Shown here: in pieces, positions 11,045-60,362 of the stretch | Layout: every line of letters starts with the position of its first letter | Position numbering within the stretch: the first letter of the stretch is position 1 | Assembly (NCBI GenBank): GCA_034003985.1 | Contig: JAVEXP010000001.1 | Coordinates: 68,924 to 132,923 of the forward strand | Source of the DNA: Patescibacteria group bacterium | GTDB lineage: Bacteria; Patescibacteriota; Patescibacteriia; Buchananbacterales; UBA6539 | Direction of reading: 5' to 3' | Length of the DNA stretch: 64,000 nucleotides | Translations under genes and position numbers: made by a program | The notes under the pieces: model-generated | Databases searched by the model: none | Seen by the model: only the letters and a program-made list of their open reading frames with translations | Told to the model about the DNA's origin: nothing

Positions 11045-11847
11045 TTATTGTCGTGGTACCAGATGAAACAGATAGGTGCCCTCGGCTCCGGGTGGCGCGG
11101 CACTCGAATAGATGTGGTCGCCATTTTGCCAGTGGCGGATGACGGTGAAGCCGTCAATGGTTGCTAGGCCTTGGTCGTTGAACGGAGTGATCAACCATGG
11201 CCATTTGGTTTCCGTTGCCTGCAAGACAGGCTGGCTGTTGTCTTTGATGACTTTGAGATTGTAATCCGTTGGTGTAAATACCCAGAAGGCCGTGCAGATC
11301 ACTACGATCATCACCAGTCCCTGAAGCCAACCATTAGCGTCGATGTGGCCGCGACCGGCGGTAAGTTTGTGAGCATACCAGCCAGGTTGCCAGACTGCGA
11401 CTGGAATGAAGCAGATCAGTAAGACGGCTACCCAGAACTTATTGGCGCTGGTATCAATGAAATAGGCCGATAGCGTTCCCAGCACTACCGTGAAGTAGGC
11501 CAGGTGATACCAACCACCAACGGTAAGCTTCCTGATGCCGATCCGCTCTGGCTCGACAATATGTCCAGGCAAATCGCACCATTGGCAGTAGGCCAGGTGC
11601 ATCAGTACACTGATGGCCAGTCCGGCGACAATGCACATCACCCAGACGGTTGTCGTGATTTCGCCCAGATAGGATCCGATCAGGTAGGCAATACCGCTCA
11701 CGATAATCAGATCGGACCACATTCCGCCGTGGACCAGCCAGGGGACAGAAAAATACCCCATCTGCCGCTTTGACAAACGGTGTTCAAATCCGGCGATTGC
11801 AGCTCCGACAAGCACCAAAATAATATTAAAGAACGCGAGTCCCGTCA
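11045..11847 (-). CDS. Hypothetical polytopic membrane protein (GC-rich gene)
   Basis: It has multiple TM helices. The preferred start is the ATG at 11847, which has SD 'AAGGAGA'. The gene is about 55% GC, well above the flanks. Confidence 0.5.
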
Positions 11848-11941
11848 TGGGAATTCTCCTTTTTTGAACCACGCCACCGCGGCGTGATAAACAAATAATT
11901 CTAACATAAAATATATAGAAAGTCAATGTTTTTGTATAATA

Positions 11942-19235: not shown

Positions 19236-19355
19236 ATGCCGCATTTAAGCGACGATTGCCCATGCGGTTCGGGAAAAACCTACGGCGAGTGCTGTGGGGC
19301 AGCCGAACCATGCGATTGTGGCTCAGGAAAACCAGCCGGCGAGTGCTGCTACTAG
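19236..19355 (+). CDS. 39-aa protein with two SEC-C-type zinc-binding motifs
   Basis: The translation is 'MPHLSDDCPCGSGKTYGECCGAAEPCDCGSGKPAGECCY'. 'CPCGSGKxYxxCCG' is the SecA C-terminal metal-binding (SEC-C) motif. It falls below the ORF-track cut-off and has no strong SD. Confidence 0.4.
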   Translation: MPHLSDDCPCGSGKTYGECCGAAEPCDCGSGKPAGECCY

Positions 19356-19462
19356 TTTAGAGAAAGTCCTGCCAGGTCTTGGACAAAACCTAGTATAAAA
19401 AACTCTAAGATAGTAAGAATAAGGGTGATGTTTTTTATTTGGCCGCCGAGGCTGTTTTTTTA

Positions 19463-19491
19463 TTGACTATTTTACTATTTTGTGATATTTT
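19463..19491 (+). promoter_or_regulatory. Promoter-like repeat copy P1 (TTGACT, 17-nt spacer, TATTTT)
   Basis: It is near-identical to the promoter at 48213-48241 ('ttgactatttt..tgtgatatt') and shares the upstream 'gctgttttttt' leader. Confidence 0.4.
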
Positions 19492-19845
19492 GAATAGTTG
19501 AATGGTTGGTTGTCGGTAAGTTCCGGTGACTTGACGGAGGGCAATAACGAGAGAACAGTAGATACTACAGCTCAAGGCCACTACACAGCTCACCTACCCC
19601 AGTGGGCTATGATATGCCTTTGGTATGAATCTGTTAGGGATAGTCTCGTTTAGTAGCGTGCTCAATGATTTCGGTCGAGAGTCAACGATTCCTTGTCTGA
19701 TTTCCCTGCAGCAAGCCTGTTCTTGGGTTGAGGGATCGTATTGGTAATCAGGTTGTTTTTTTATGAATAAAGCATCCTGGTGCCCTGATTAGGCCGTAAT
19801 TTTTTGGGTGAACCATTCAAGCAAGCGTTCCTCCAATCGGGTTCC

Positions 19846-19885
19846 AGGATGTCCGAGCGTCGGCAGAATCATCCTGGTTTTTTTA
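19846..19885 (+). terminator. Intrinsic terminator
   Basis: An 8-bp stem 'ccaggatg/catcctgg' with an internal 'ccga-gcg-tcgg' hairpin, followed by T7. Confidence 0.55.
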
Positions 19886-19931
19886 TTAAAAAAGAAACTA
19901 CGGGTAGTAATTTCTTTTTTAGGTAGTATGA

Positions 19932-20570
19932 TTAAACGGTTTGTTCTTCTTGGGCGATAATATCTTTGACTTTCATCAGGGTGATAATGGTCGCTCGTTC
20001 TTGTTCGTTGAGTTTAGCCGTAATGTATTTGATGGTTTCTTTCATATCGGGGATAAAAACATACTCTAGGGCATTAACCCGACGGCGAGTTTTTTCGATT
20101 TCTTCAGCTAGTAATCTGGCGGAGTGTTCAATCTCGGCCAGACGAACCATGTCTTGAAGGGCATTAGAAAAAGTTTCCAGGGCGCGGTCAAGGCTGGTGG
20201 AAGTCGTAGCTAGGTCGTAGCAGAGAAAGTCACCTTCTTCTTGATACTCAAACAATGGCACTTCTACACCCATGACATTTTTGGTTTTGGCTTCCAAGCG
20301 GACTTTTTTAGTTGGGACAGCCAGGGCTTCGTTAATAACAGAGTGTCTGATTTTGGAAGAAAAGAAAATGAAGGAGAAAAAGCCGCTACTCAAATCAGTT
20401 TCAATTTTTTGGCGCAAATCTCTGGCTTCGCGAATGATCGCCATGAAGTGTTTCATTAAGCCGTCGCGTTTTTCCTTGAGCAATTTATGGCCACGCATCG
20501 CCGTCTTAAGCTTGATTTTTAGCTTAAGTAACTCCTGACGAGTGGGATTAACATTCAGTTTGTTAGCCAT
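19932..20570 (-). CDS. atpD: V/A-type ATP synthase subunit D
   Basis: It is coiled-coil with the 'NPTRQELLKLKIKLKTAMRGHKLLKEKRD' signature of V-type subunit D. Confidence 0.9.
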   Translation of the reverse strand: MANKLNVNPTRQELLKLKIKLKTAMRGHKLLKEKRDGLMKHFMAIIREARDLRQKIETDLSSGFFSFIFFSSKIRHSVINEALAVPTKKVRLEAKTKNVMGVEVPLFEYQEEGDFLCYDLATTSTSLDRALETFSNALQDMVRLAEIEHSARLLAEEIEKTRRRVNALEYVFIPDMKETIKYITAKLNEQERATIITLMKVKDIIAQEEQTV

Positions 20571-28840: not shown

Positions 28841-29485
28841 TTGGGAAACGGAGAGCAGTTTTTTCTGGAACAGTTTCGGCAACGCCAAGCCTTGTGGATT
28901 TATCAAGGCGAACCGCGAGCTGAAGCGCCACATGGGTTGATGACCTCGGGGAAGCATTCCAAAGGCTATTTTAACAGCACACCGATCGTTCGCGATCCGA
29001 AGCTGTTGTCGGTAGCCTGTGGTACCCTGCTGCATTCGATAAGCGTTGACCCCAAAGATGTCGGCGAAGTCTGGGGTAGCGCAATGGGTGCGATTATGAT
29101 GGCCTATGAGTTGGCCCAACAAATTGGTGCGCTTTCGGGCTACACTGAGAAGCAGGAAGGAAACATGGTGGTTGGTCGCAATGCGATTCAGCCCGGCACT
29201 CGTGTGCTGCTGGTGGAAGATGTTATCACCACCGGCGGTACGACTTTGAAAACGGTGGCCGCGCTGGAGTCGGCGGGAGCCATCGTGATGGGAGAAATTC
29301 TGGCGTTGGTAAACCGTTCGGGCCTGACTGAACTGAACGGTCGTAAGATCGTGTCCTTGATTGAGCAGGAGTTGCCCTTGTGGAGCGCGGCTGAATGTCC
29401 GTATTGCCGGGTTGGTTCCGAGGCTTTGCGGCCCAAGGGCGAGAACTGGTTTCGACTTGTCGGAACAGGAGGTGAAACAGGATGA
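28841..29485 (+). CDS. Orotate phosphoribosyltransferase-like type I PRTase (TTG start)
   Basis: A perfect SD 'AAGGAGG' lies 6 nt before the TTG. 'VLLVEDVITTGGT' is the PRPP-binding motif. 'SGKHSKGYFN' resembles the PyrE 'SGRKSPYFFN'. GC is about 60%. Confidence 0.75.
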   Translation: MGNGEQFFLEQFRQRQALWIYQGEPRAEAPHGLMTSGKHSKGYFNSTPIVRDPKLLSVACGTLLHSISVDPKDVGEVWGSAMGAIMMAYELAQQIGALSGYTEKQEGNMVVGRNAIQPGTRVLLVEDVITTGGTTLKTVAALESAGAIVMGEILALVNRSGLTELNGRKIVSLIEQELPLWSAAECPYCRVGSEALRPKGENWFRLVGTGGETG

Positions 29486-30354
29486 ACGCTTTCTTGTCTT
29501 TGATCCGGGATGCTGGCGGTGATGAGCGAACCCGGATCTGTGTTGGGCTGGATCCTGAAATCGCGCGGCTTCCCGTCTGTGTCAGAGGGTCTAACCCAGC
29601 GGAACGAGTGATGTCGTTTTCGACTGATGTGGCCGCTGCTACAGCGCAGTTTGCTTTGGCCTTTCAAACCAAGCTGGCCATCTGGCAAGCGGTTGGCGCT
29701 GAAGAACAACTGGCAAAACTGATTGCTTATATTCAAGGGCAATTGGGTCGGCCGGTGATCTTGGACGCCAACTATGGCGATGTTCCGGCAATATCCGCGG
29801 AATATGCGAAAGCCGCTTTCGATCGTTTCGACGCTAGCGCGGTAACGCTGAATGTCTATCACGGTCGAGACAGCCTGGTTCCCTGGCTGAAGCGCGGTCC
29901 GGAAAAAGGACTGTTCGTTGTCTGCCACACCAGCAACGACATGGCCAGTGATTTTCAGGACCTGCAGGTCAACCCGGTTGGTAATGGCGGCCATTTGCCA
30001 TTGTTCGTCCATTTGGCTCATCAGGTGCTGCAGCTGCGGTCGGACGACAGCGCAACTATCGGATTCGTGATGGACGAAGCATTCCCGATGCATATTACCA
30101 GCCTTCGGCCGCAAGCTGGTGACTGGTGGTGGCAGCCATCAGAGATTCCGTTGCTGATCGGGTATTCGTCGGGGCAGCTTGAGGAGTTGGTAGGGCGGGC
30201 TTCGTTCTATCCTTTCCTGCTGAGCTGTTCGCGAGGGATAATCCACGCTTCGGAGGAGTCGGATTTTGCCCAGGCCGCCGCTAATGCCGCCGAGGGCTTG
30301 CGTAACCGAGTCAACATGGTGTTGGAAAACAAGGAGGGATGTCGTGTCGGCTAA
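29482..30354 (+). CDS. Orotidine-5'-phosphate decarboxylase-like (type 2 / HUMPS family) with a non-canonical active-site motif
   Basis: 'ICVGLDP', 'VTLNVYHG' and 'VCHTSNDM' match type-2 ODCase blocks. The DxKxxD block reads 'ILDANYGDV', so the catalytic Lys is replaced by Asn and the Arg by Tyr. The ATG overlaps the upstream stop and has SD 'GGAGGTGA'. Confidence 0.7.
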   Translation: MNAFLSLIRDAGGDERTRICVGLDPEIARLPVCVRGSNPAERVMSFSTDVAAATAQFALAFQTKLAIWQAVGAEEQLAKLIAYIQGQLGRPVILDANYGDVPAISAEYAKAAFDRFDASAVTLNVYHGRDSLVPWLKRGPEKGLFVVCHTSNDMASDFQDLQVNPVGNGGHLPLFVHLAHQVLQLRSDDSATIGFVMDEAFPMHITSLRPQAGDWWWQPSEIPLLIGYSSGQLEELVGRASFYPFLLSCSRGIIHASEESDFAQAAANAAEGLRNRVNMVLENKEGCRVG

Positions 30355-30667: not shown

Positions 30668-31774
30668 ATGCCAACATTGACAGGTGGAACATTGTTACTA
30701 GAAGAGGAAGGTCTGGCCGGAATCAAACCCGGTTTGATCAAGCATGCACTGTTTGACAGTGACGGAACCATCTCGCTCTTGCGGGCGAAATGGGATCTGG
30801 TAATGGCGCCAATGATGTGCCGGGCGATTTGCGGTGAGGGAAACACAGTGCCCCAGGAAGTGGCCGAGATCGTTTCCGACACCATTGAGGAAACAACGGG
30901 CATTCGGACAATTCGCCAGATGGAGCTGCTGGTCAATCTGGTCATGCAGTTCGGGCTGGTGCCTGACGATCAGGTCAAGGATGCTTGGGGGTACAAGGCC
31001 GACTATTTGGCGGCATTGATGGTGCCGGTCAACGAGCGGATTGCGCGCGTTCAGTCCGGCGCTTGCAAGCCGGAGCATTTTATGGTTCGGGGGATTGGGA
31101 CTCTCCTGGAACTGTTTTGCCAAGTCGGAATCGACATGCGGGTGTTCTCCGGCACCGATGAACCCGATGTGCGACGCGAACTCGAAGTGCTGGGAGTCCT
31201 TCACCATTTCACCTCAGTTCACGGGGCAGCACCGGCGCTGAAGCCCGGAGAACCTGAAATCGACAAGGAACAGGTTCTCCAATGCTTGATGGAAGAGCAG
31301 GGGCTCAAAGGCGAGGAAGTTTTGATCATCGGCGACGGTCCGGTGGAAATCAAGCTTGCGCGGCAGTTCGGCTGTTGGGCCATTGGCGTTTGTTCGAAAG
31401 AGGGCGATGATCGCAAAGGCTATGATCAGGCCAAGGTCGCGCGTCTGACCAAGGCCGGGGCCCATGTGCTTATCCCCGATTTCAGCGACGCTTGCCGCTT
31501 GGTACGCGAACTGTTCAAAGTCGCGTCAATCATCGAGCCGGCCAATTTTCCGCTGCCGGAAGATGAAGACATGCTGTCGTTGCTTGGCTTTATCCGCAAC
31601 CAGGTCAGCAACGGCGAATTCAAGCCTGGCGACTTGTTGCCCACCCCGGAAGAATTTGTCGAGCGCTTTTCCCAGATCGTCGGGCATCGGGTTTATCCTG
31701 AAACCGTGGTCGGACTGTACAACGCGTCCGAACATATCAAGCGGCGTGACTATGACGGCTATGTGATTGTCTAA
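30668..31774 (+). CDS. HAD superfamily hydrolase (subfamily IA-like phosphatase) with a roughly 150-aa C-terminal extension
   Basis: The ATG has SD 'AAGGGAG'. 'ALFDSDGTIS' is motif I (DxDGT). 'SGTD' is motif II. 'IIGDGPVE' is motif IV. Confidence 0.7.
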   Translation: MPTLTGGTLLLEEEGLAGIKPGLIKHALFDSDGTISLLRAKWDLVMAPMMCRAICGEGNTVPQEVAEIVSDTIEETTGIRTIRQMELLVNLVMQFGLVPDDQVKDAWGYKADYLAALMVPVNERIARVQSGACKPEHFMVRGIGTLLELFCQVGIDMRVFSGTDEPDVRRELEVLGVLHHFTSVHGAAPALKPGEPEIDKEQVLQCLMEEQGLKGEEVLIIGDGPVEIKLARQFGCWAIGVCSKEGDDRKGYDQAKVARLTKAGAHVLIPDFSDACRLVRELFKVASIIEPANFPLPEDEDMLSLLGFIRNQVSNGEFKPGDLLPTPEEFVERFSQIVGHRVYPETVVGLYNASEHIKRRDYDGYVIV

Positions 31775-48064: not shown

Positions 48065-48212
48065 GTTTTTAAAAACAGTTCGAAATCAGATAAATAAAAT
48101 TGATGTCGCTGGTTAATATTTAGTGCTTGGCTTAATTTTAGCATAATTACAGTTCAGACGAAAGAAAATATAGTAATGGATTTTTGTTGGGTTGTTTGGG
48201 TTTTTTCTTTTC

Positions 48213-48241
48213 TTGACTATTTTGTTAAAATGTGATATTAT
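48213..48241 (+). promoter_or_regulatory. Consensus promoter P2
   Basis: TTGACT (48213-48218), a 17-nt spacer and TATTAT (48236-48241). The RBS 'GAGGAGAG' follows before the ATG at 48292. Confidence 0.55.
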
Positions 48242-48291
48242 AGGATGTTCGTCGGATTCTAGTAAATGGCAAACATGAGGAGAGAAATGCC

Positions 48292-48570
48292 ATGAACAAA
48301 CCAATCGTCGGCCACAAAATCCTTAAAGCCTTGGAAGGTTTTGAGGCCGGTTTGGGCGATGATGCCAGCATCCAGCCCGCCATTCTGGCCAATCGGAATT
48401 TTGATCCGAGCCGGGTTGTGGCAGCCTGGGGCGGATACCTCAACGATGCCTGGACCGACAAGATCCAGGCGAAAATCCAGGAGGGTTTCACGGTCGTGCG
48501 AATCCAGACCGAATGGACTGGCAAGGCACACCGGACCATGATTTACCTGGTCAAACTGAGCGCCGAATAA
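48292..48570 (+). CDS. Hypothetical 92-aa protein in a GC-rich islet
   Basis: It has a strong promoter, an RBS and a terminator. GC is about 55%. Confidence 0.45.
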   Translation: MNKPIVGHKILKALEGFEAGLGDDASIQPAILANRNFDPSRVVAAWGGYLNDAWTDKIQAKIQEGFTVVRIQTEWTGKAHRTMIYLVKLSAE

Positions 48571-48598
48571 CCATTTGGCCGACATTGCTCAGTTTTGA

Positions 48599-48633
48599 GA
48601 AGCCGCATGGTGCGCCCAGCGGCTTCTTTTCTT
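48599..48633 (+). terminator. Rho-independent terminator
   Basis: A perfect 8-bp stem 'gaagccgc/gcggcttc' with a 12-nt loop, followed by TTTTCTT. Confidence 0.65.
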
Positions 48634-48965
48634 ATCTAAAGCTAAACGGCAGTTATATTTTCCGCCAATATTTCGTGGCGTTCAAATGGTGGCATTAATA
48701 TTTATCTTTAATATATTTGATAACTTCTCGGTCGTGCTTTATTATTATTAGATTTTTTGTTTCTTCTGAGGTAAATCAACCCATCACTTGTCCTTCACCT
48801 TGGGTCAGTTTTAGGCCGGAATCATATTCTTCCATCCTACTCATAATAAGAATAAAAGTTAGGTGGAATAAAAAAATAATTAATTACCTATTAATCAAGA
48901 GTGTGTCGGGCAGTTTATATTTTGTGCAACCAGATAAAATGTGCTGGGCGCTGTTTTTTCTTTTC

Positions 48966-48994
48966 TTGACAGTCTTTTCTTGATATGATAATTT
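48966..48994 (+). promoter_or_regulatory. Promoter-like repeat copy P3
   Basis: It is TTGACA preceded by the same 'gctgttttttcttttc' leader as P2. The -10 is weak ('tatgat'/'taattt'). Confidence 0.35.
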
Positions 48995-49041
48995 GGATTG
49001 AGTTCTGGTAACATAGCTGACAACATAGGAGGAAACAGGAT

Positions 49042-49284
49042 ATGTCTACCAAGGCACTTTGGTGTATCAGTTTTAACGACGGTACTTCCGTTGAGGTACG
49101 AGGCTCAAGCAAGCGCAATGCTGACAATCAGGCTTGCGCGAAGGCTGGCAAGACTCATCGCGAGATCTGTTCTCGGGGCGTGGTTTGTGGCAAGCCTCAC
49201 AACGGAAAACGAAATCGATCAAGACATTCCGGTGTAGTACATCCTTGCGCCAGCCCCCTGTCCCGTTGGGGTTGGCACTACTAA
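49042..49284 (+). CDS. Hypothetical 80-aa basic Cys/His-containing protein in a GC-rich islet
   Basis: RBS 'TAGGAGGA' lies 8 nt before the ATG. The product begins 'MSTKALWCISFNDGTSVEVRGSSKRNADNQACAKAGKTHREICSRGVVCGKPHNGKRNRSRH'. Confidence 0.45.
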   Translation: MSTKALWCISFNDGTSVEVRGSSKRNADNQACAKAGKTHREICSRGVVCGKPHNGKRNRSRHSGVVHPCASPLSRWGWHY

Positions 49285-49314
49285 GCTTTCGCCCGTGTTC
49301 GTTTTTACCGGCCT

Positions 49315-49344
49315 TGTCTGGACTGCCCCACGATCGCGTCGCGG
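49315..49344 (+). terminator. Putative terminator
   Basis: Hairpin 'ccccacga-tcgcg-tcgcgggg' followed by a T8 run. Confidence 0.45.
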
Positions 49345-49371
49345 GGCTTTTTTTAGTAAAAAAATAACCTG

Positions 49372-49387: not shown

Positions 49388-49864
49388 AGTAATGTATCTT
49401 TTTTCTTAAAAATTTGATTTTTTTGTTTTGAGAAATGAAAGAGGGGTTAGGGGGTGAATTTTATTTTTCAAAATTCCTTTTTAGCTTTTCTTATGAAAGT
49501 ATTTTTGGATCAAACAACCTATGAACGCGAAAAATAATCCAGAGCTGAGGAAGGTGATGATAACGACTCCCGCCACATCATCATTTGGGTTTAGATATTT
49601 CAATGCTGCTATCGCCCCACCAGCAAACACTTCGCCAAAGATAAAACCAGGTCTGTTTCGTGATTTTCAACCTCATTAAGTATAAATTCTCTTATTTTAG
49701 TGTAATTTTTATCCATATAGACATTGTAAACCCCTAAAATTTACATTGTAAACCATGTAAGTTTTAATAAAAAACAAGACCAAGGTCTTGGAGGAAAAGC
49801 ATATTTCATATAACGTTTCGGCATATACGATGTTGCGTTAGCAATATAGGCGAAGCGAAGCGTA

Positions 49865-49893
49865 GCCGTATATGCCGTGTTAAGTGATGTATG
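49865..49893 (+). repeat. Core-site copy c2 ('ccgtgttaagtgatgtatgacgagggcgg'), inverted partner of c3
   Basis: It lies directly 3' of the hydrolase cassette. About 21 of 27 positions match rc(c3). Confidence 0.55.
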
Positions 49894-51111: not shown

Positions 51112-52149
51112 CTACAAAATTTCAAATTCATGTTCTTTGTTGTCCTCGACTATCTTAAGGAACTCATCGAATTCATTTCTTTTTTTATTGATAATATTTT
51201 CTAAAACATCGATTTTCAAATCCCTCAATCCTGTCGGCATGTTTGGGTCTAAATCATAACCTAGCAGGAAAATGTCGACGACTTTTATGTCATGATTGTG
51301 TCGTTCTATAATTCCCTTATACCCTAATATTTGACCAATATGATCAGCCTTGATTTTAACAGATGGCCGTTTTAATTCGACTAATACAACATGGTTAGAA
51401 TCTTGTAAGAACATTTTTACAATTAAGTCTGGTCTCTTACCGAGCTCGGGGTCGTCTTCTAAATTTTTGTCGAGATAATCGCTCAAGGTTTTGTCACTTC
51501 TAACTAGATCATAGTTATTATCCAAGAGCCACAAATTTTTTTCTAACAACTTATGTATCTCTCTTTCCTTCGTATCCTTTTGTTTAATAAGGTGCCCAAG
51601 TAGTTTAATAAGTGATATCTTTTTTCTTACCAACTCAGCTATTGTGCTGATCTGTCCTATTCTGAGCTCATTCAAAATTGCTACAAAATTGTCCAATTCG
51701 TCATTTTTAGCGTCTGACAATTGTTTAAGAAGAAAGTCGACATTTTCTGCCTTAATTTCATAAACTCTAACCGCTAATTTATCTAAAGCCTCGAAGCTAG
51801 CCTGAGATAAGCCAGCTACATTTTTATTTGAGAGGATCTTTTGAAGAAAATCAGGGTTACTTGCAAGTATCTCATTTAGGTTGTGAAGTACTTCTTGTTC
51901 CGTTGAATATTTAGTACTTGTTGGCCACTGATGGTATTGGTATGTTTCAGATTCGATGAGTTCCTTAAGATGATTCCAATCATCCAGGTATAAATTAAAT
52001 TTGCCAGTTTTCTCTGGATGACCGGTATGTACTCTTTCTAGGATAATATAGTTGCGATCTTGATGTTCTCCGTCACCAATTACTGCCAGCGTTGTAATGC
52101 CACTTTTCCAGGCTTTTGTGACTTTCTTTAAAAGTTTAAATTTTGTCAT
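51112..52149 (-). CDS. PD-(D/E)xK nuclease-fold protein, DUF4263/Shedu-like candidate
   Basis: 'RPDLIVKMFLQDSNHVVLVELKRP' fits PD...(D/E)xK. The upstream 'EREIHKLLEKNLWLLDNNY' resembles the helix preceding DUF4263 nuclease cores. The gene is flanked at both ends by a 26/28-identical inverted repeat. Confidence 0.5.
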   Translation of the reverse strand: MTKFKLLKKVTKAWKSGITTLAVIGDGEHQDRNYIILERVHTGHPEKTGKFNLYLDDWNHLKELIESETYQYHQWPTSTKYSTEQEVLHNLNEILASNPDFLQKILSNKNVAGLSQASFEALDKLAVRVYEIKAENVDFLLKQLSDAKNDELDNFVAILNELRIGQISTIAELVRKKISLIKLLGHLIKQKDTKEREIHKLLEKNLWLLDNNYDLVRSDKTLSDYLDKNLEDDPELGKRPDLIVKMFLQDSNHVVLVELKRPSVKIKADHIGQILGYKGIIERHNHDIKVVDIFLLGYDLDPNMPTGLRDLKIDVLENIINKKRNEFDEFLKIVEDNKEHEFEIL

Positions 52150-53260: not shown

Positions 53261-54085
53261 ATGTTTTTTGATGCCTTAAAAAAAGAGCTAGAAATTCGCA
53301 ATTTAAGCGAAAAGACAGCCAGGGCTTATCTGTATTATAATGGTGATTTGCTTAAATTCTGCAAAAAAACACCCGAATCAATTAAGGAATTGGATATAAA
53401 AGAGTATGTTAGACATTTGGTTGTGGAAAGGCGGGCTTCGGCTTCGACTGTCAGACTGGCTTTGAATGCTTTAAAATTTTATTACTCAAATATTAAGAAA
53501 CGCCGGTTTGATTATCTTTCTAAGGCGGTGTTGCCTAAAAAACCAAAAAGGTTGCCGGTGGTTTTATCTAAATCCGAAGTGGCAAAATTGTTAAGTTGCG
53601 TTGTCAACAATAAACATCGGTTAATTTTGTCGCTGATGTATTCTTCCGGCTTGAGAGTTAGTGAAGTTGTAACTTTAAGAACTCAGGACTTTGATTTGGA
53701 AAATAAAATTTTGTGGGTTAGACAGGGTAAGGGCAGAAAGGATCGACGAACAATCATTGCTGAAAAGTTAATTGATGATTTAAATCAATTGATCAGCTGT
53801 AAAGAAGTTGGTGATTATATTTTTCCCAGCCAGGATGGGATTGGACATCTTACCGCCCGAACAGCAGAAAAGATTTTTCAATCCGCACTGGTTAAATCAG
53901 GAGTCAAGAAGGAAGCGACATGCCATAGTTTGCGCCATAGTTTTGCCACTCATCTTTTGGAAGATGGGACTGATATTCGTTATATTCAAAGTTTGTTGGG
54001 ACATCAAAGTTTAACAACTACTCAGATCTATACCAAAGTGAGCAGTGGGCATTTAAGTCAGATCAAATCACCATTTGATTGTTAG
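53261..54085 (+). CDS. Tyrosine site-specific recombinase (XerC/XerD-like integrase)
   Basis: It has an N-terminal SAM-like domain. The C-terminal 'HSLRHSFATHLLEDGTDIRYIQSLLGHQSLTTTQIYTKV' contains the catalytic R-H-R-Y residues. Confidence 0.85.
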   Translation: MFFDALKKELEIRNLSEKTARAYLYYNGDLLKFCKKTPESIKELDIKEYVRHLVVERRASASTVRLALNALKFYYSNIKKRRFDYLSKAVLPKKPKRLPVVLSKSEVAKLLSCVVNNKHRLILSLMYSSGLRVSEVVTLRTQDFDLENKILWVRQGKGRKDRRTIIAEKLIDDLNQLISCKEVGDYIFPSQDGIGHLTARTAEKIFQSALVKSGVKKEATCHSLRHSFATHLLEDGTDIRYIQSLLGHQSLTTTQIYTKVSSGHLSQIKSPFDC

Positions 54086-54185: not shown

Positions 54186-54299
54186 GTGTCATTCTGAGGC
54201 CGCAGGCCGAAGAATCTCTAGACAGAATTGATGTCCTTTACTTTGAGATCCTTCGCTTCGCTCAGGATGACAAGAAGGTGGCTCAGGATGACAATGGGG
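54186..54299. repeat. MITE-like palindromic repeat copy 1 (A+B modules) with an 18-bp tandem 'ggatgacaaRaaggtg' tail
   Basis: 'tgtcattctgaggccgcaggccgaagaatctct...gagatccttcgcttcgctcaggatgaca'. The termini 'tgtcattctgag'/'ctcaggatgaca' are inverted. The internal arms 'cgaagaatctc' and 'gagatccttcg' are complementary. Confidence 0.6.
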
Positions 54300-54323
54300 T
54301 AGGATTATAGTAATACAATATAT

Positions 54324-54620
54324 ATGCCCGGTAGAATATATTATGTTTATTTAATGGTAAACAAGACTAATACGGTAGTTTATACAGGGGTGACAAATAA
54401 CCTGAGACGACGAGTTTTTGAACATAAGAATAAGTTAGTTAAGGGGTTTACCAGTAAGTATAATGTGAATAAATTGGTTTATTTTGAAGAAACTGAAGAT
54501 GTGTCCACGGCAATTTTTCGTGAAAAACAGATTAAGGGTTGGTTAAGAATAAAGAAAATTAAGTTAATTCAAACACGAAATCAGGGGTTTAAGGATTTAA
54601 GTGAATATTGGTATGATTAA
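54324..54620 (+). CDS. Stand-alone GIY-YIG nuclease domain protein (UPF0213-like)
   Basis: 'YYVYLMVNKTNTVVYTGVTNNLRRRVFEH' carries the GIY..YIG and R..E motifs. Confidence 0.75.
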   Translation: MPGRIYYVYLMVNKTNTVVYTGVTNNLRRRVFEHKNKLVKGFTSKYNVNKLVYFEETEDVSTAIFREKQIKGWLRIKKIKLIQTRNQGFKDLSEYWYD

Positions 54621-54631
54621 TTTTTTACTTT

Positions 54632-54737
54632 GTCATTCTGAGGCCGCAGGCCGAAGAATCTCTGGACAGAATTGTTTGAGATCCTTCGCTTCACTCAGGA
54701 TGACAAAAGAAGATTTCCACGATGACAAAAGAGAGTG
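54632..54737. repeat. MITE-like palindromic repeat copy 2
   Basis: It is near-identical to copy 1 in modules A (54632-54674) and B (54678-54737). Confidence 0.6.
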
Positions 54738-54835
54738 TTTGGTATAACAAAAGAGATGACTTTGGTTCGCAACAATCTGTCTGCTGGTAATCGGTAATGA
54801 CAGATTAGCACCGCGGCAATAAAATACTATTGTTA

Positions 54836-54864
54836 TTGACATAAATTTTGGCTAGGTATACAAT
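54836..54864 (+). promoter_or_regulatory. Consensus sigma70-type promoter (TTGACA, 17 nt, TACAAT)
   Basis: TTGACA at 54836-54841, the spacer 'taaattttggctaggta' and TACAAT at 54859-54864. No ORF follows. Confidence 0.55.
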
Positions 54865-54870
54865 GTGAAT

Positions 54871-55076
54871 ACCTAAGGTGATTGGTAAGGCTACCAACTT
54901 TACAGCGAGATCCTTCGCTTCGCTCAGGATGACAAGAGCGGCTAAACTTTTTAGGCCAATAAAATAAATTGAGTGTCCCGATAAAATCGGGAAAGTTGGG
55001 TGGAACCGCCCCGATAATTTACCTGCCTCGGCAGGTCGGAGTCCCAAGCAGAAATTTTCTGGTTGGTTTTTTGTTT
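54871..55076 (+). ncRNA. Candidate small RNA (about 205 nt) of unknown family, with a 3' intrinsic terminator
   Basis: It has no ORF longer than 12 codons. It carries perfect hairpins 'tcccgat-aaa-atcggga' and 'acctgcc-tc-ggcaggt'. The terminal hairpin is 'ccaagcagaa-attt-ttctggttgg' followed by TTTTTTGTTT. It embeds one B-module repeat at 54907-54936. Confidence 0.4.
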
Positions 55077-55093
55077 GGATATCTTTCGCTTCG

Positions 55094-55150
55094 AGATCCT
55101 TCGCTTCGCTCAGACAAAAGAAGATTTCCACGATGACAAGAAGGTGGCCC
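55094..55150. repeat. MITE-like B-module half copy
   Basis: 'gagatccttcgcttcgctcagacaaaagaagatttccacgatgacaagaaggtggcccaggat'. Confidence 0.5.
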
Positions 55151-55253
55151 AGGATTATAAAGAGAGTGTTTAGGGTAATGGGTGGGGTAATTGCGACAGG
55201 ATTTAGAATGGCATTAGGGTGTTTATTTTGATTATCAACCCAATATCATGTTG

Positions 55254-55396
55254 TGTCATTCTGAGGCCGTAGGCCGAAGAATCTCTGGACAGAATTGTTT
55301 GAGATCCTTCGCTTCGCTCAGGATGACAAAAGAAGATTTCCACGATGACAAGAAGGTGTTCGGGATGACAAGAAGGTGTTCGGGATGACAGGAAGT
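55254..55396. repeat. MITE-like palindromic repeat copy 3 with 2.5 tandem copies of a 20-bp unit 'gatgacaagaaggtgttcgg'
   Basis: It has the A module (55254-55296) and the B module (55301-55340). The tandem units at 55345-55396 run up to the GNAT gene. Confidence 0.6.
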
Positions 55397-58631: not shown

Positions 58632-60194
58632 TTACAGGCCCAGAATAATCGGGGATGAGAACGAGGGCAGGGTGCTACCGTCGTCCATCGTCACCCGCCA
58701 GCCGCTATTGAATTGCGGTTGGCCAAAGAGCGTGGGGTCGAAAATACCCAGCGGACCGCTGCGATGCAGGTCGGTCCAGATGAAGTAAGCCTGGGAAGCT
58801 GCTTCATCGTAGGTGGCCGGCAAGGGGGCGGGGAAAGACTGGTCCCCGACCAGGTTGGTGACGATCGCGGCGTCGGCCTGGCCGGGTGGAATATTCAAAT
58901 CGGCCATCAGCCAGAGCCGTTCGCCTTGATCAATCTGACCGTCAGGAATCACTTGCGGCTCCAAATCAACGATGACCAAGCCGTCGGCATCAAGCTGGCC
59001 GGTGCCAACCACACCCTGAAATTCGCGCCAGACGCGAAAGTTGCTCGCGGTCACATGCTGCGTCTGGACCTTGAAGGTCAGGCGGCAGAGTGCCAAATCG
59101 TCCCAGCCGCCGTTGGTGACGGCGAGCGGGAAGAGGATTTGGTTGTTGATATGGCCAACAACCAGGCGCGCGCCATGCAGCGGCAAGATGCTGACTATGG
59201 GCACACTCTGAAAAACAGTGAACTGCCCTGAGGTTGCCTGGCCAATCCCACCTAAGAGCTGGTTCGAATCCAGCCCGCGTCCGACAATCTCTTCTCCGGG
59301 CACGAAAACCGTGAAACCTTGGCCGGATTCGGCGGGGCCAGTCTCGCAATCGCCCGTCTCCACCTTGATCGTGAAGTGCTCGGGTACTCCGGGCTGGAGA
59401 ACCAGCGGTTCGGCAAAGTTGACTACCGCGCTGCCAGCCGTCAAAGGTATTGGCTCTTCCCAAGAGTCGTCGGTGCTGGGGACAGCCGAACCCAGGAAGT
59501 CGGCGCCGTGATAGACACTGACTTGCCCGATTTGATCCGGCCCGCCATCGTTGACTTTACTGAAGTAGATTGGCAAGCCGCTGATTTCCACTGGTTCGCG
59601 TTCGGCATCAAGGGCGACTTCCAGGATGCTGATTCCGGAAGTGTTGGCGGGTAAAAGCCCGGATCGGGGAGAGTTGCCGCCGGTACCGACATTAATTTCA
59701 CCGCCGGCGACCACTTGAATGATCGGTCCAAACTGAATCAGCTCCGGCGATTCCTGACTCATTCCGGCGACCATTGAGGTGGACGCCTGAATAGCGCATT
59801 CCATTGCCGAGGTGGCAATATCGCCGATCAGTTGGGCAGTCATTTGCTGGTTGGCACTGAAGGCCAAGGGCTGGGCCAGCAGGAAGCGGATCTGGGCGAC
59901 GCTTTGGTCGGGGTCAAACAGTCCCGCGTTGGGATCGTTGACGGTTTGTGCCAGCTCGCCGTCAATCAGCAAGCCGACATTGGCCAGAACATTGACCCCG
60001 GCGCCATTGACATTGACTCCGAAAGTCAGTTGGGAAAGGGTTGTCGGGCTTTTGTCGCCGTTGAGCTGCAGGTCCAGCAGGACAATGCCTTGCGAGCCGG
60101 CAATCACGGTGAAACCCTGGGTGGCGGTAATGGTCACGGTCACACAACCGGCCAATACTACACTCATCAGAACCAGAATCAAAGACTTACGCAT
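58632..60194 (-). CDS. Large secreted lipoprotein of unknown function (GC-rich gene, about 60% GC)
   Basis: The ATG at 60194 has SD 'AAGGAGA'. 'MRKSLILVLMSVVLAGCVTV' is the lipobox. It is Gly/Val/Thr-rich and beta-rich in composition. Confidence 0.5.
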   Translation of the reverse strand: MRKSLILVLMSVVLAGCVTVTITATQGFTVIAGSQGIVLLDLQLNGDKSPTTLSQLTFGVNVNGAGVNVLANVGLLIDGELAQTVNDPNAGLFDPDQSVAQIRFLLAQPLAFSANQQMTAQLIGDIATSAMECAIQASTSMVAGMSQESPELIQFGPIIQVVAGGEINVGTGGNSPRSGLLPANTSGISILEVALDAEREPVEISGLPIYFSKVNDGGPDQIGQVSVYHGADFLGSAVPSTDDSWEEPIPLTAGSAVVNFAEPLVLQPGVPEHFTIKVETGDCETGPAESGQGFTVFVPGEEIVGRGLDSNQLLGGIGQATSGQFTVFQSVPIVSILPLHGARLVVGHINNQILFPLAVTNGGWDDLALCRLTFKVQTQHVTASNFRVWREFQGVVGTGQLDADGLVIVDLEPQVIPDGQIDQGERLWLMADLNIPPGQADAAIVTNLVGDQSFPAPLPATYDEAASQAYFIWTDLHRSGPLGIFDPTLFGQPQFNSGWRVTMDDGSTLPSFSSPIILGL

Positions 60195-60362
60195 GCCACT
60201 TCTCCTTCTTGTTGGCATATTCCATTGTAGGGAACACAAAATTGTACTCATTTTGAGCACCTCAAAACATACCATAAAATATGATTTTTGTCAATAATTA
60301 TGCTTGAATTAACCCGGTTTTTTTGCTATTTTTAAATAGTTGAAACTAAATAATTAGCTAAA

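Follow-up and report, generated by a model that had tools for sequence, protein, structure and literature searches.

Extended promoter elements are known from outside the organisms considered here. The -16 region, with its TRTG motif, is said to have been described in Bacillus subtilis and in other Gram-positive bacteria by Voskuil and Chambliss in 1998 and by Helmann in 1995. For Patescibacteria, our search of the literature found no experimentally mapped promoter. Two further kinds of element bear on promoters that recur ahead of unrelated genes. Phage morons are often of deviant base composition. They are autonomous promoter-gene-terminator units lying between conserved genes, a description that is reportedly owed to Juhala et al. 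and Hendrix et al., both of 2000. The second kind is the putative mobile promoter, for which the published thresholds are a length of at least 50 nt, an identity of at least 80% and an E value below 1e-4 (Matus-Garcia, Nijveen and van Passel 2012, PMC3488235).

The DNA that we analysed, referred to here as the window, is the whole stretch of 64 kb, which belongs to a contig of at least 331 kb; the window has a GC content of 42.8%. The nearest genomes to its source are Candidatus Buchananbacteria and other Patescibacteria MAGs; a search of 5.8 billion proteins found no close relative of the organism, and the best TatD match was 69% identical. Gene order was compared with relatives' loci L002–L008. 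The original prediction had placed a promoter-bearing repeat at three sites in the window and had taken it for a mobile or duplicated promoter cassette that captures or drives small foreign genes. The motif does occur at each of the three sites, and, as Table 1 shows, all three copies are promoter-like, each heading a small self-contained unit. The three copies are probably separate, ordinary and strong near-consensus promoters of the housekeeping sigma factor, and their likeness would reflect mainly shared functional constraint rather than mobile copying. Each promoter would be built from a T-tract at about -38 to -50, a TTGAC(T/A) hexamer, a 17-bp T-rich spacer, TRTG at -16 and TAnnnT at -10, and would fire into its own unit of ~350–385 nt, closed by an intrinsic terminator. 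The payloads would be an ORF-free RNA in unit 1, a 92-aa gene in unit 2 and an 80-aa gene in unit 3. The likeness of the promoters would come from functional constraint in an AT-rich intergenic background, and the units would be accessory, moron-like insertions.

Table 1. Predicted promoters, units and terminators in the 64-kb window, numbered from its first letter.
Feature	Position	Strand	Parts	Folding
Promoter 1	19449..19491	+	T-tract 19454-19461; -35 TTGACT 19463-19468; 17-bp spacer; -16 TGTG 19481-19484; -10 TATTTT 19486-19491	
Unit 1	19497..19884	+	ORF-free transcript of ~385 nt; start predicted	
Unit 1 terminator	19844..19884		hairpin 19844-19877 and U7 19878-19884	-15.4 kcal/mol
Bidirectional terminator	19888..19920	.	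A/T-flanked hairpin	-8.7 kcal/mol, z -2.8
Promoter 2	48200..48241	+	T-tract GTTTTTTCTTTTC 48200-48212; -35 TTGACT 48213-48218; -16 TGTG 48231-48234; -10 TATTAT 48236-48241	
Unit 2	48247..48635	+	leader ~45 nt; SD GAGGAGAG 48277-48284; 92-aa ORF 48292-48570	
Unit 2 terminator	48597..48628		hairpin, then UUUUCUU	-20.3 kcal/mol, z -4.7
Promoter 3	48953..48994	+	T-tract GTTTTTTCTTTTC 48953-48965; -35 TTGACA 48966-48971; -16 TATG 48984-48987; -10 TAATTT 48989-48994	
Unit 3	49000..49354	+	SD AGGAGG 49027-49032; 80-aa ORF 49042-49284	
Unit 3 terminator	49325..49347		hairpin, then U7	-16.3 kcal/mol
Fourth promoter, like build	11898..11926	-	TTGACT-N12-TATG-T-TAGAAT; no T-tract upstream	
Fifth promoter, like build	60266..60294	-	TTGACA-N12-TATG-G-TATGTT; no T-tract upstream	

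Judged from sequence only, all three sites combine the -35, the spacer and -10, and the TRTG of sigma-70/sigma-A promoters with an extended -10. The -35 hexamers agree with TTGACA at five, five and six of six positions in copies 1, 2 and 3, respectively, and the -10 hexamers agree with their consensus at four (TATTTT), five (TATTAT) and three (TAATTT) of six. The spacer is 17 bp in each case, and the extended -10 reads TGTG-A, TGTG-A and TATG-A. Promoter 2, which sits in a divergent intergenic region, reaches 10 of 12 matches in the consensus scan, with TG before the second hexamer; promoter 1 is listed by it too, as TTGACT-17-TATTTT and likewise with the TG. Promoter 3 was not listed by that scan, since its weak -10 falls below the 4-of-6 rule applied there; it does fit the composite pattern described below. 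An alternative register for this promoter, GATAAT with a 15-bp spacer, is less canonical. From these elements, transcription is predicted to start at ~19497, 48247 and 49000.

The T-tract would act in the manner of an UP element. In promoter 1 it is preceded by a weak hairpin (19441-19453, -5.7 kcal/mol), and it may have a second role as the U-tract of the TatD/SEC-C operon terminator. No hairpin was found ahead of the T-tract in promoters 2 and 3, and in these two the tract is therefore part of the promoter and not of an upstream terminator. Two more promoters of like build occur in the window. The fourth drives a GC-rich membrane protein (ATG at 11848) and the fifth a GC-rich putative lipoprotein of ~520 aa (ATG at 60194); neither product has a Pfam match.

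How alike the three copies are can be stated closely. A repeat search places 19450-19487, 48200-48237 and 48953-48990 in one family whose members are 74–76% identical to the reference across 38 nt, and the blastn pairs match at 28–29 of 35 nt (80–83% identity, E 0.003–0.012 with a database of ~105 kb). The copies had been called near-identical, which overstates a likeness of this length and significance. It also falls short of the combined length, identity and E value published for putative mobile promoters, while the non-homologous flanking coding sequences expected of such promoters are present, as judged by blastn and tblastx of the three units and their flanks (PMC3488235).

That a module of ~40 nt, comprising T-tract and promoter, was copied to the three sites, or at least between units 2 and 3, is decidedly unlikely. 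Copying would explain the 18-mer GTTTTTTCTTTTCTTGAC, which is exact in copies 2 and 3 at a distance of 753 bp (2 of 100 shuffles reach two matches), and it fits with downstream genes that are mutually unrelated. It would also explain the identity at unconstrained positions, which we compared over all 171 pairs of 19 TTGACN-17-TAnnnT sites from the window and its relatives. The c1-c2 and c2-c3 pairs reach 0.62 and the third pair 0.51, as against 0.34 ± 0.09 for the other pairs. The highest score, 0.72, belongs to a true duplicate of promoter and leader in L003 (7085 and 9093), with c1-c2 and c2-c3 ranking just below it, and this duplicate shows that such duplications occur in the lineage. In addition, the over-extended N-terminus called for the only homolog of the 92-aa protein would back-translate to TTGAC-N13-TATG-A-TATHAT. 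Against copying stands, besides the published thresholds, the fact that the likeness ends at the edges of the promoter elements: in the three-copy alignment only the T-tract, the -35 and the -16/-10 columns are conserved. Copies 1 and 2 have TTGACTATTTT and TGTGATATT in common. When blocks were shuffled with their composition kept, the c2-c3 upstream block (p=0.01) and the c1-c2 spacer (p=0.04) stood out, and the remaining blocks, among them the c2-c3 and c1-c3 spacers and all sequence downstream of the -10, were at chance. The run that is shared is of low complexity and T-rich, much of the excess identity is shared T-richness, and the similarity left after elements and T-richness is marginal as evidence of homology. 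Homologs of the 80-aa protein elsewhere have different upstream sequences.

A search of the sequence flanking the units found neither terminal inverted repeats nor any convincing duplication of a target, only inverted repeats of 8–21 nt at chance level. A transposable element (IS or MITE) was rejected for want of terminal inverted repeats together with a target-site duplication, and the flanking GTTTTTTTAT runs are terminator U-tracts. A small local duplication may nevertheless lie behind the 18-mer and T-tract common to copies 2 and 3. The mobile or duplicated cassette is unsupported, as the likeness extends over ~40 nt and is almost wholly accounted for by T-tract, -35, spacing, -16 TRTG and -10. 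The similarity comes close to being limited to the generic hexamers, the finding that had been named as the one to overturn the cassette; what goes beyond them is the T-tract, the spacing, the -16 element and the marginal residue.

A second way to account for the common sequence is to see the T-tract, TTGACTATTTT and TGTGATAT as the operator of a common transcription factor, with the three units forming one regulon. Three unrelated units do share sequence beyond two hexamers, and TGTGA resembles a CRP/FNR-type operator half-site, which would count for an operator. It is nonetheless very improbable: the TGTGA is without a palindromic partner, copy 3 has TATG and not TGTG, there is no adjacent regulator gene, and the TRTG at -16 is a general element that occurs also in the two other full-consensus promoters and at other sites in the window.

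The reading as separate housekeeping promoters is carried by the composite pattern TTGAC-N13-TRTG-N-TANNNT. Counted over the 64-kb window, the scope at which the version with T-tract was counted as well, it has five matches where 0.01 are expected, and 0 of 100 shuffles reach five; the pattern is ~500 times commoner than expected. The five are the three flagged sites and the two ahead of unrelated genes. Every one of them is intergenic and correctly oriented, and in four cases an SD and start codon follow 40–70 nt downstream; the remaining match precedes the ORF-free unit 1, which has no SD or start codon and has a terminator at its end. The shorter TRTGNTAWWWT is itself enriched in the window (10 matches, 4.2 expected). 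The composite pattern also occurs in relatives, and in L002, L004, L005 and L006 the genes that follow the TatD/SEC-C pair differ and are headed by TTGACT/A promoters beside T-tracts. Mere chance agreement with the consensus in AT-rich intergenic DNA, without promoter function, is scarcely credible, for while simple sigma-70 scans give about as many matches in shuffled sequence as in the real one, the excess of the composite pattern, the position and orientation of its matches and the terminator at the end of each of the three flagged units all speak against it.

The segment behind copy 1 had been described as free of ORFs over roughly 390 nt, and this is borne out, since the ~385 nt of unit 1 hold no credible ORF; the longest in the sense direction is 51 aa with a TTG start and no SD. 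The unit is not GC-rich, at 46–50%, and a U-tract within it (19755-19762) has no stable hairpin. Over 10 nt, the 5' end of the unit (19498-19507) can pair perfectly with 19811-19820. The sequence CATCCTGG occurs at 19773-19780 and again at 19870-19877, and either can pair with CCAGGATG at 19844-19851; two such sequences in competition for one partner would be like a terminator/antiterminator switch. Folding of the unit is not significant relative to shuffled sequence (z +0.97 and -0.06). Rfam gives no match to unit 1 at the gathering score and only two spurious ones at E<=10, ARAGORN finds no tmRNA in it, and the other units likewise lack known RNA families in Rfam. Unit 1 may have a function.

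The neighbors of unit 1 are TatD and the V-ATPase operon. L008 has the order MetRS-CvpA-TatD-SEC-C, followed by convergent genes with Pfam matches to V-ATPase subunits D, B and A. L007 has CvpA-TatD-SEC-C followed by a convergent gene without a Pfam call, which we assign as atpD on the basis of its conserved reverse-strand C-terminal coding sequence. The gap between SEC-C and atpD is ~120 nt in L007 and L008, and within it lie a 3' element that is conserved and a single bidirectional terminator; in the window the gap is 576 nt, and the extra ~450 nt are exactly promoter 1, unit 1 and its terminator. The hairpin at 19888..19920, which closes the convergent V-ATPase operon (its gene for subunit D, on the minus strand, ends at 19932), corresponds to the single SEC-C/atpD terminator of the two relatives. 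A homolog of unit 1 is absent from every fetched locus of the relatives. Because the unit is missing from two relatives of the same gene order, it is insertion-like; an insertion would be the simplest account, the alternative being two losses. A comparison of synteny with relatives had been proposed for the small GC-rich genes; around units 2 and 3 the flanks are unconserved, and it is unit 1 that is missing from L007 and L008.

The slot after TatD/SEC-C is occupied differently elsewhere. Promoter-terminator units are found in it in L002 and in L004/L005, a different one in each; in L003 and L006 it holds a promoter, behind which come longer, ordinary genes. In L004 (7185-7545) and L005 (2572-2925), an ORF-free unit of ~360 nt bounded by promoter and terminator lies downstream of TatD. 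It is ~85% conserved between these two Buchananbacteria-like genomes, with six predicted pairs showing compensatory changes; it has no Rfam match, its sequence is unrelated to window unit 1, and it is a candidate for a new ncRNA. Homology between this unit and unit 1 was considered and rejected, as the MAFFT alignment was unconvincing and nhmmer returned nothing with either an L004/L005 profile or unit 1 as the query.

Two other recurrent elements were seen in these loci. Directly 3' of the 39-aa ORF with a double SEC-C motif, an RNA-like element is conserved in the window (19348-19425) and in L002 (7038-7120), L006 (4920-5000), L007 (3310-3390) and L008 (4921-5005). UACUAG, the last codon of this ORF together with its stop, forms a pairing with an invariant CUAGUA some 40 nt further on; the hairpin between the two is variable, with compensatory changes, and is followed by an invariant UAUAAAAAA(A)CUCUAA and then by a second small hairpin. 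The element has no Rfam entry and is absent from L003 and L004. The other is a TTGACT promoter with a leader hairpin (GGAGG...CCTTCC, sequestering an SD-like sequence), which recurs ahead of different genes in L003 (7085-7150 and 9093-9160, near-identical), L004 (7553-7620), L005 (2936-3000) and L006 (5094-5160). A search of the window did not find this module.

Copies 2 and 3 had each been said to precede a short ORF with a strong RBS and a terminator, and indeed they do, the ORFs being of 92 aa (RB292_00535) and 80 aa (RB292_00540, MDX9892886.1); both are annotated by NCBI as hypothetical proteins. The SD lies 9 nt before the ATG in both. The neighbors here are genes for a VTT protein and a serine hydrolase, and in none of the three relatives fetched does the VTT gene have this neighborhood. 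By blastn and tblastx, there is no sequence similarity among the three units or between them and the relatives. The 92-aa ORF has a coding-like GC content by codon position (0.57/0.40/0.68). Its product has one homolog (P0002), 57% identical and in a wholly different gene neighborhood, and it has no match in Pfam or PADLOC; in PHROGs only phrog_25289, of unknown function, appears, at E 0.16. The AlphaFold model has a pLDDT of 68, and a Foldseek search of it against the PDB gave nothing better than E=0.19.

The 80-aa protein is basic, and an exhaustive HMMER search yields five small homologs (P0172 and P0174-P0177; 64–92 aa, 43–50% identity), each in a different genomic context with different upstream sequence. 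The family has an N-terminal domain of ~45 aa, W-x-V-x-F-x-DGT ... SSKR-x-A ... GKPRNGKK, and its members often end in a C-terminal SRW. These proteins, small and basic, make up a sparse family that the 80-aa ORF defines. Scans of metagenome and viral data returned nothing for this family or for that of the 92-aa protein. A phage origin was rejected, since no similarity to phage DNA was found other than a 36-nt AT-rich chance match, and there was no confident PHROG match.

The surroundings of units 2 and 3 are also of note. The two lie where genes are sparse, in a stretch of 1.8 kb next to a Shedu-like gene, an integrase and REP-like repeats. An apparent remnant of a frameshifted small membrane-protein ORF can be read from the sequence at 49520-49715 (minus strand), and a long hairpin, CGGCATATACG...CGTATATGCCG containing GCGAAGCGAAGCG, lies at 49816-49878 in the gene-poor stretch after unit 3. 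A 345-aa protein (51112-52149, minus strand) has a weak match, below the Pfam cut-off, to the C-terminal nuclease domain of Shedu SduA. A cluster of REP/MITE-like repeats at 54186-55378 (TGTCATTCTGAGGCCGCAGGCCGAAGAATCTC... and CTTCGCTTCGCTCAGGATGACAA) adjoins a tyrosine recombinase gene (53261-54085). The Shedu-like gene, the integrase and the repeats together suggest that a small variable or defense island lies to the right of the two units.

The genes after copies 2 and 3 had further been called GC-rich and foreign. Units 2 and 3 do have ~53% GC, against 42.8% for the window, and the step from GC-rich to foreign is unsafe. The pyrimidine-type PRT/OMPdc operon at 28.8–30.4 kb is just as GC-rich, in the window and in relative L006, and on the strength of this conserved operon we rejected a high GC content as proof that a gene is foreign. 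Even in L008, a locus of 35% GC, the SEC-C mini-ORF is rich in GC. What stands of the idea of small foreign genes is the patchy occurrence of the 92-aa and 80-aa genes, with different neighbors in other genomes; what falls is GC content as its proof. The genes of the window form two composition classes, a minority with GC3 of 0.60–0.69 and a bulk at ~0.33–0.48. The highest GC3 values belong to 58632-60194, the 92-aa ORF, 30668-31774, 11045-11848 and the PRT/OMP-decarboxylase pair (28841-30354), all of which lie behind near-consensus TTGAC promoters. Because C3 and G3 are both raised in this set, the codon data do not tell whether the rise reflects expression-linked bias or acquisition.

A broader proposal can be framed from these loci, and we regard it as speculative and rather unlikely. 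Patescibacteria chromosomes would acquire moron-like units at intergenic junctions, each with a full-consensus promoter, a payload of ~350–400 nt and a terminator; unit 1 would be a lineage-specific regulatory RNA, and the slot after TatD/SEC-C a recurrent landing site. The ~385-nt RNA of unit 1 would have a helix that closes its 5' part on its 3' part, together with alternative terminator/antiterminator pairings, and the unit would have come in as an insertion that separates SEC-C from the V-ATPase operon.

Descriptions of promoters from CPR/Patescibacteria are scarce, and the five sites give a testable consensus of T-tract, TTGAC(A/T), 17 bp, TRTG and TAnnnT. Such a consensus could improve the annotation of operons and small genes in CPR genomes. 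The results also show that promoters close to the consensus can be mistaken for repeats when they lie in AT-rich intergenic DNA. As candidates for accessory functions with high expression, the units comprise one ORF-free RNA and two orphan small proteins, and the apparent insertion of unit 1 hints at moron-like gene gain outside phages. Neither the promoters nor the units overturn current understanding.

Set beside the systems with which we began, the three promoters are most like sigma-A/sigma-70 extended -10 promoters, with their TTGACA-like -35, 17-bp spacer and TRTG one base before TAnnnT. They differ from these in that their -10 elements are T-rich variants (TATTTT, TATTAT, TAATTT) and in that the host belongs to the uncultivated Patescibacteria. 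The A/T-rich tract upstream is like an UP element; here, however, it is a T-run, unlike the canonical UP element with its phased A/T tracts. As with mobile promoters, similar promoters stand before non-homologous genes and beside non-homologous upstream neighbors, but the copies lie below the thresholds, and their likeness coincides with generic promoter elements (PMC3488235). Finally, the units resemble morons in that each has its own predicted promoter and terminator, in that unit 1 lies between genes that are adjacent in relatives, and in that the GC content of units 2 and 3 exceeds that of the window by ~10 points. Unlike morons, they lie in a bacterial chromosome without flanking prophage genes, unit 1 is without an ORF, and base composition is not diagnostic here.
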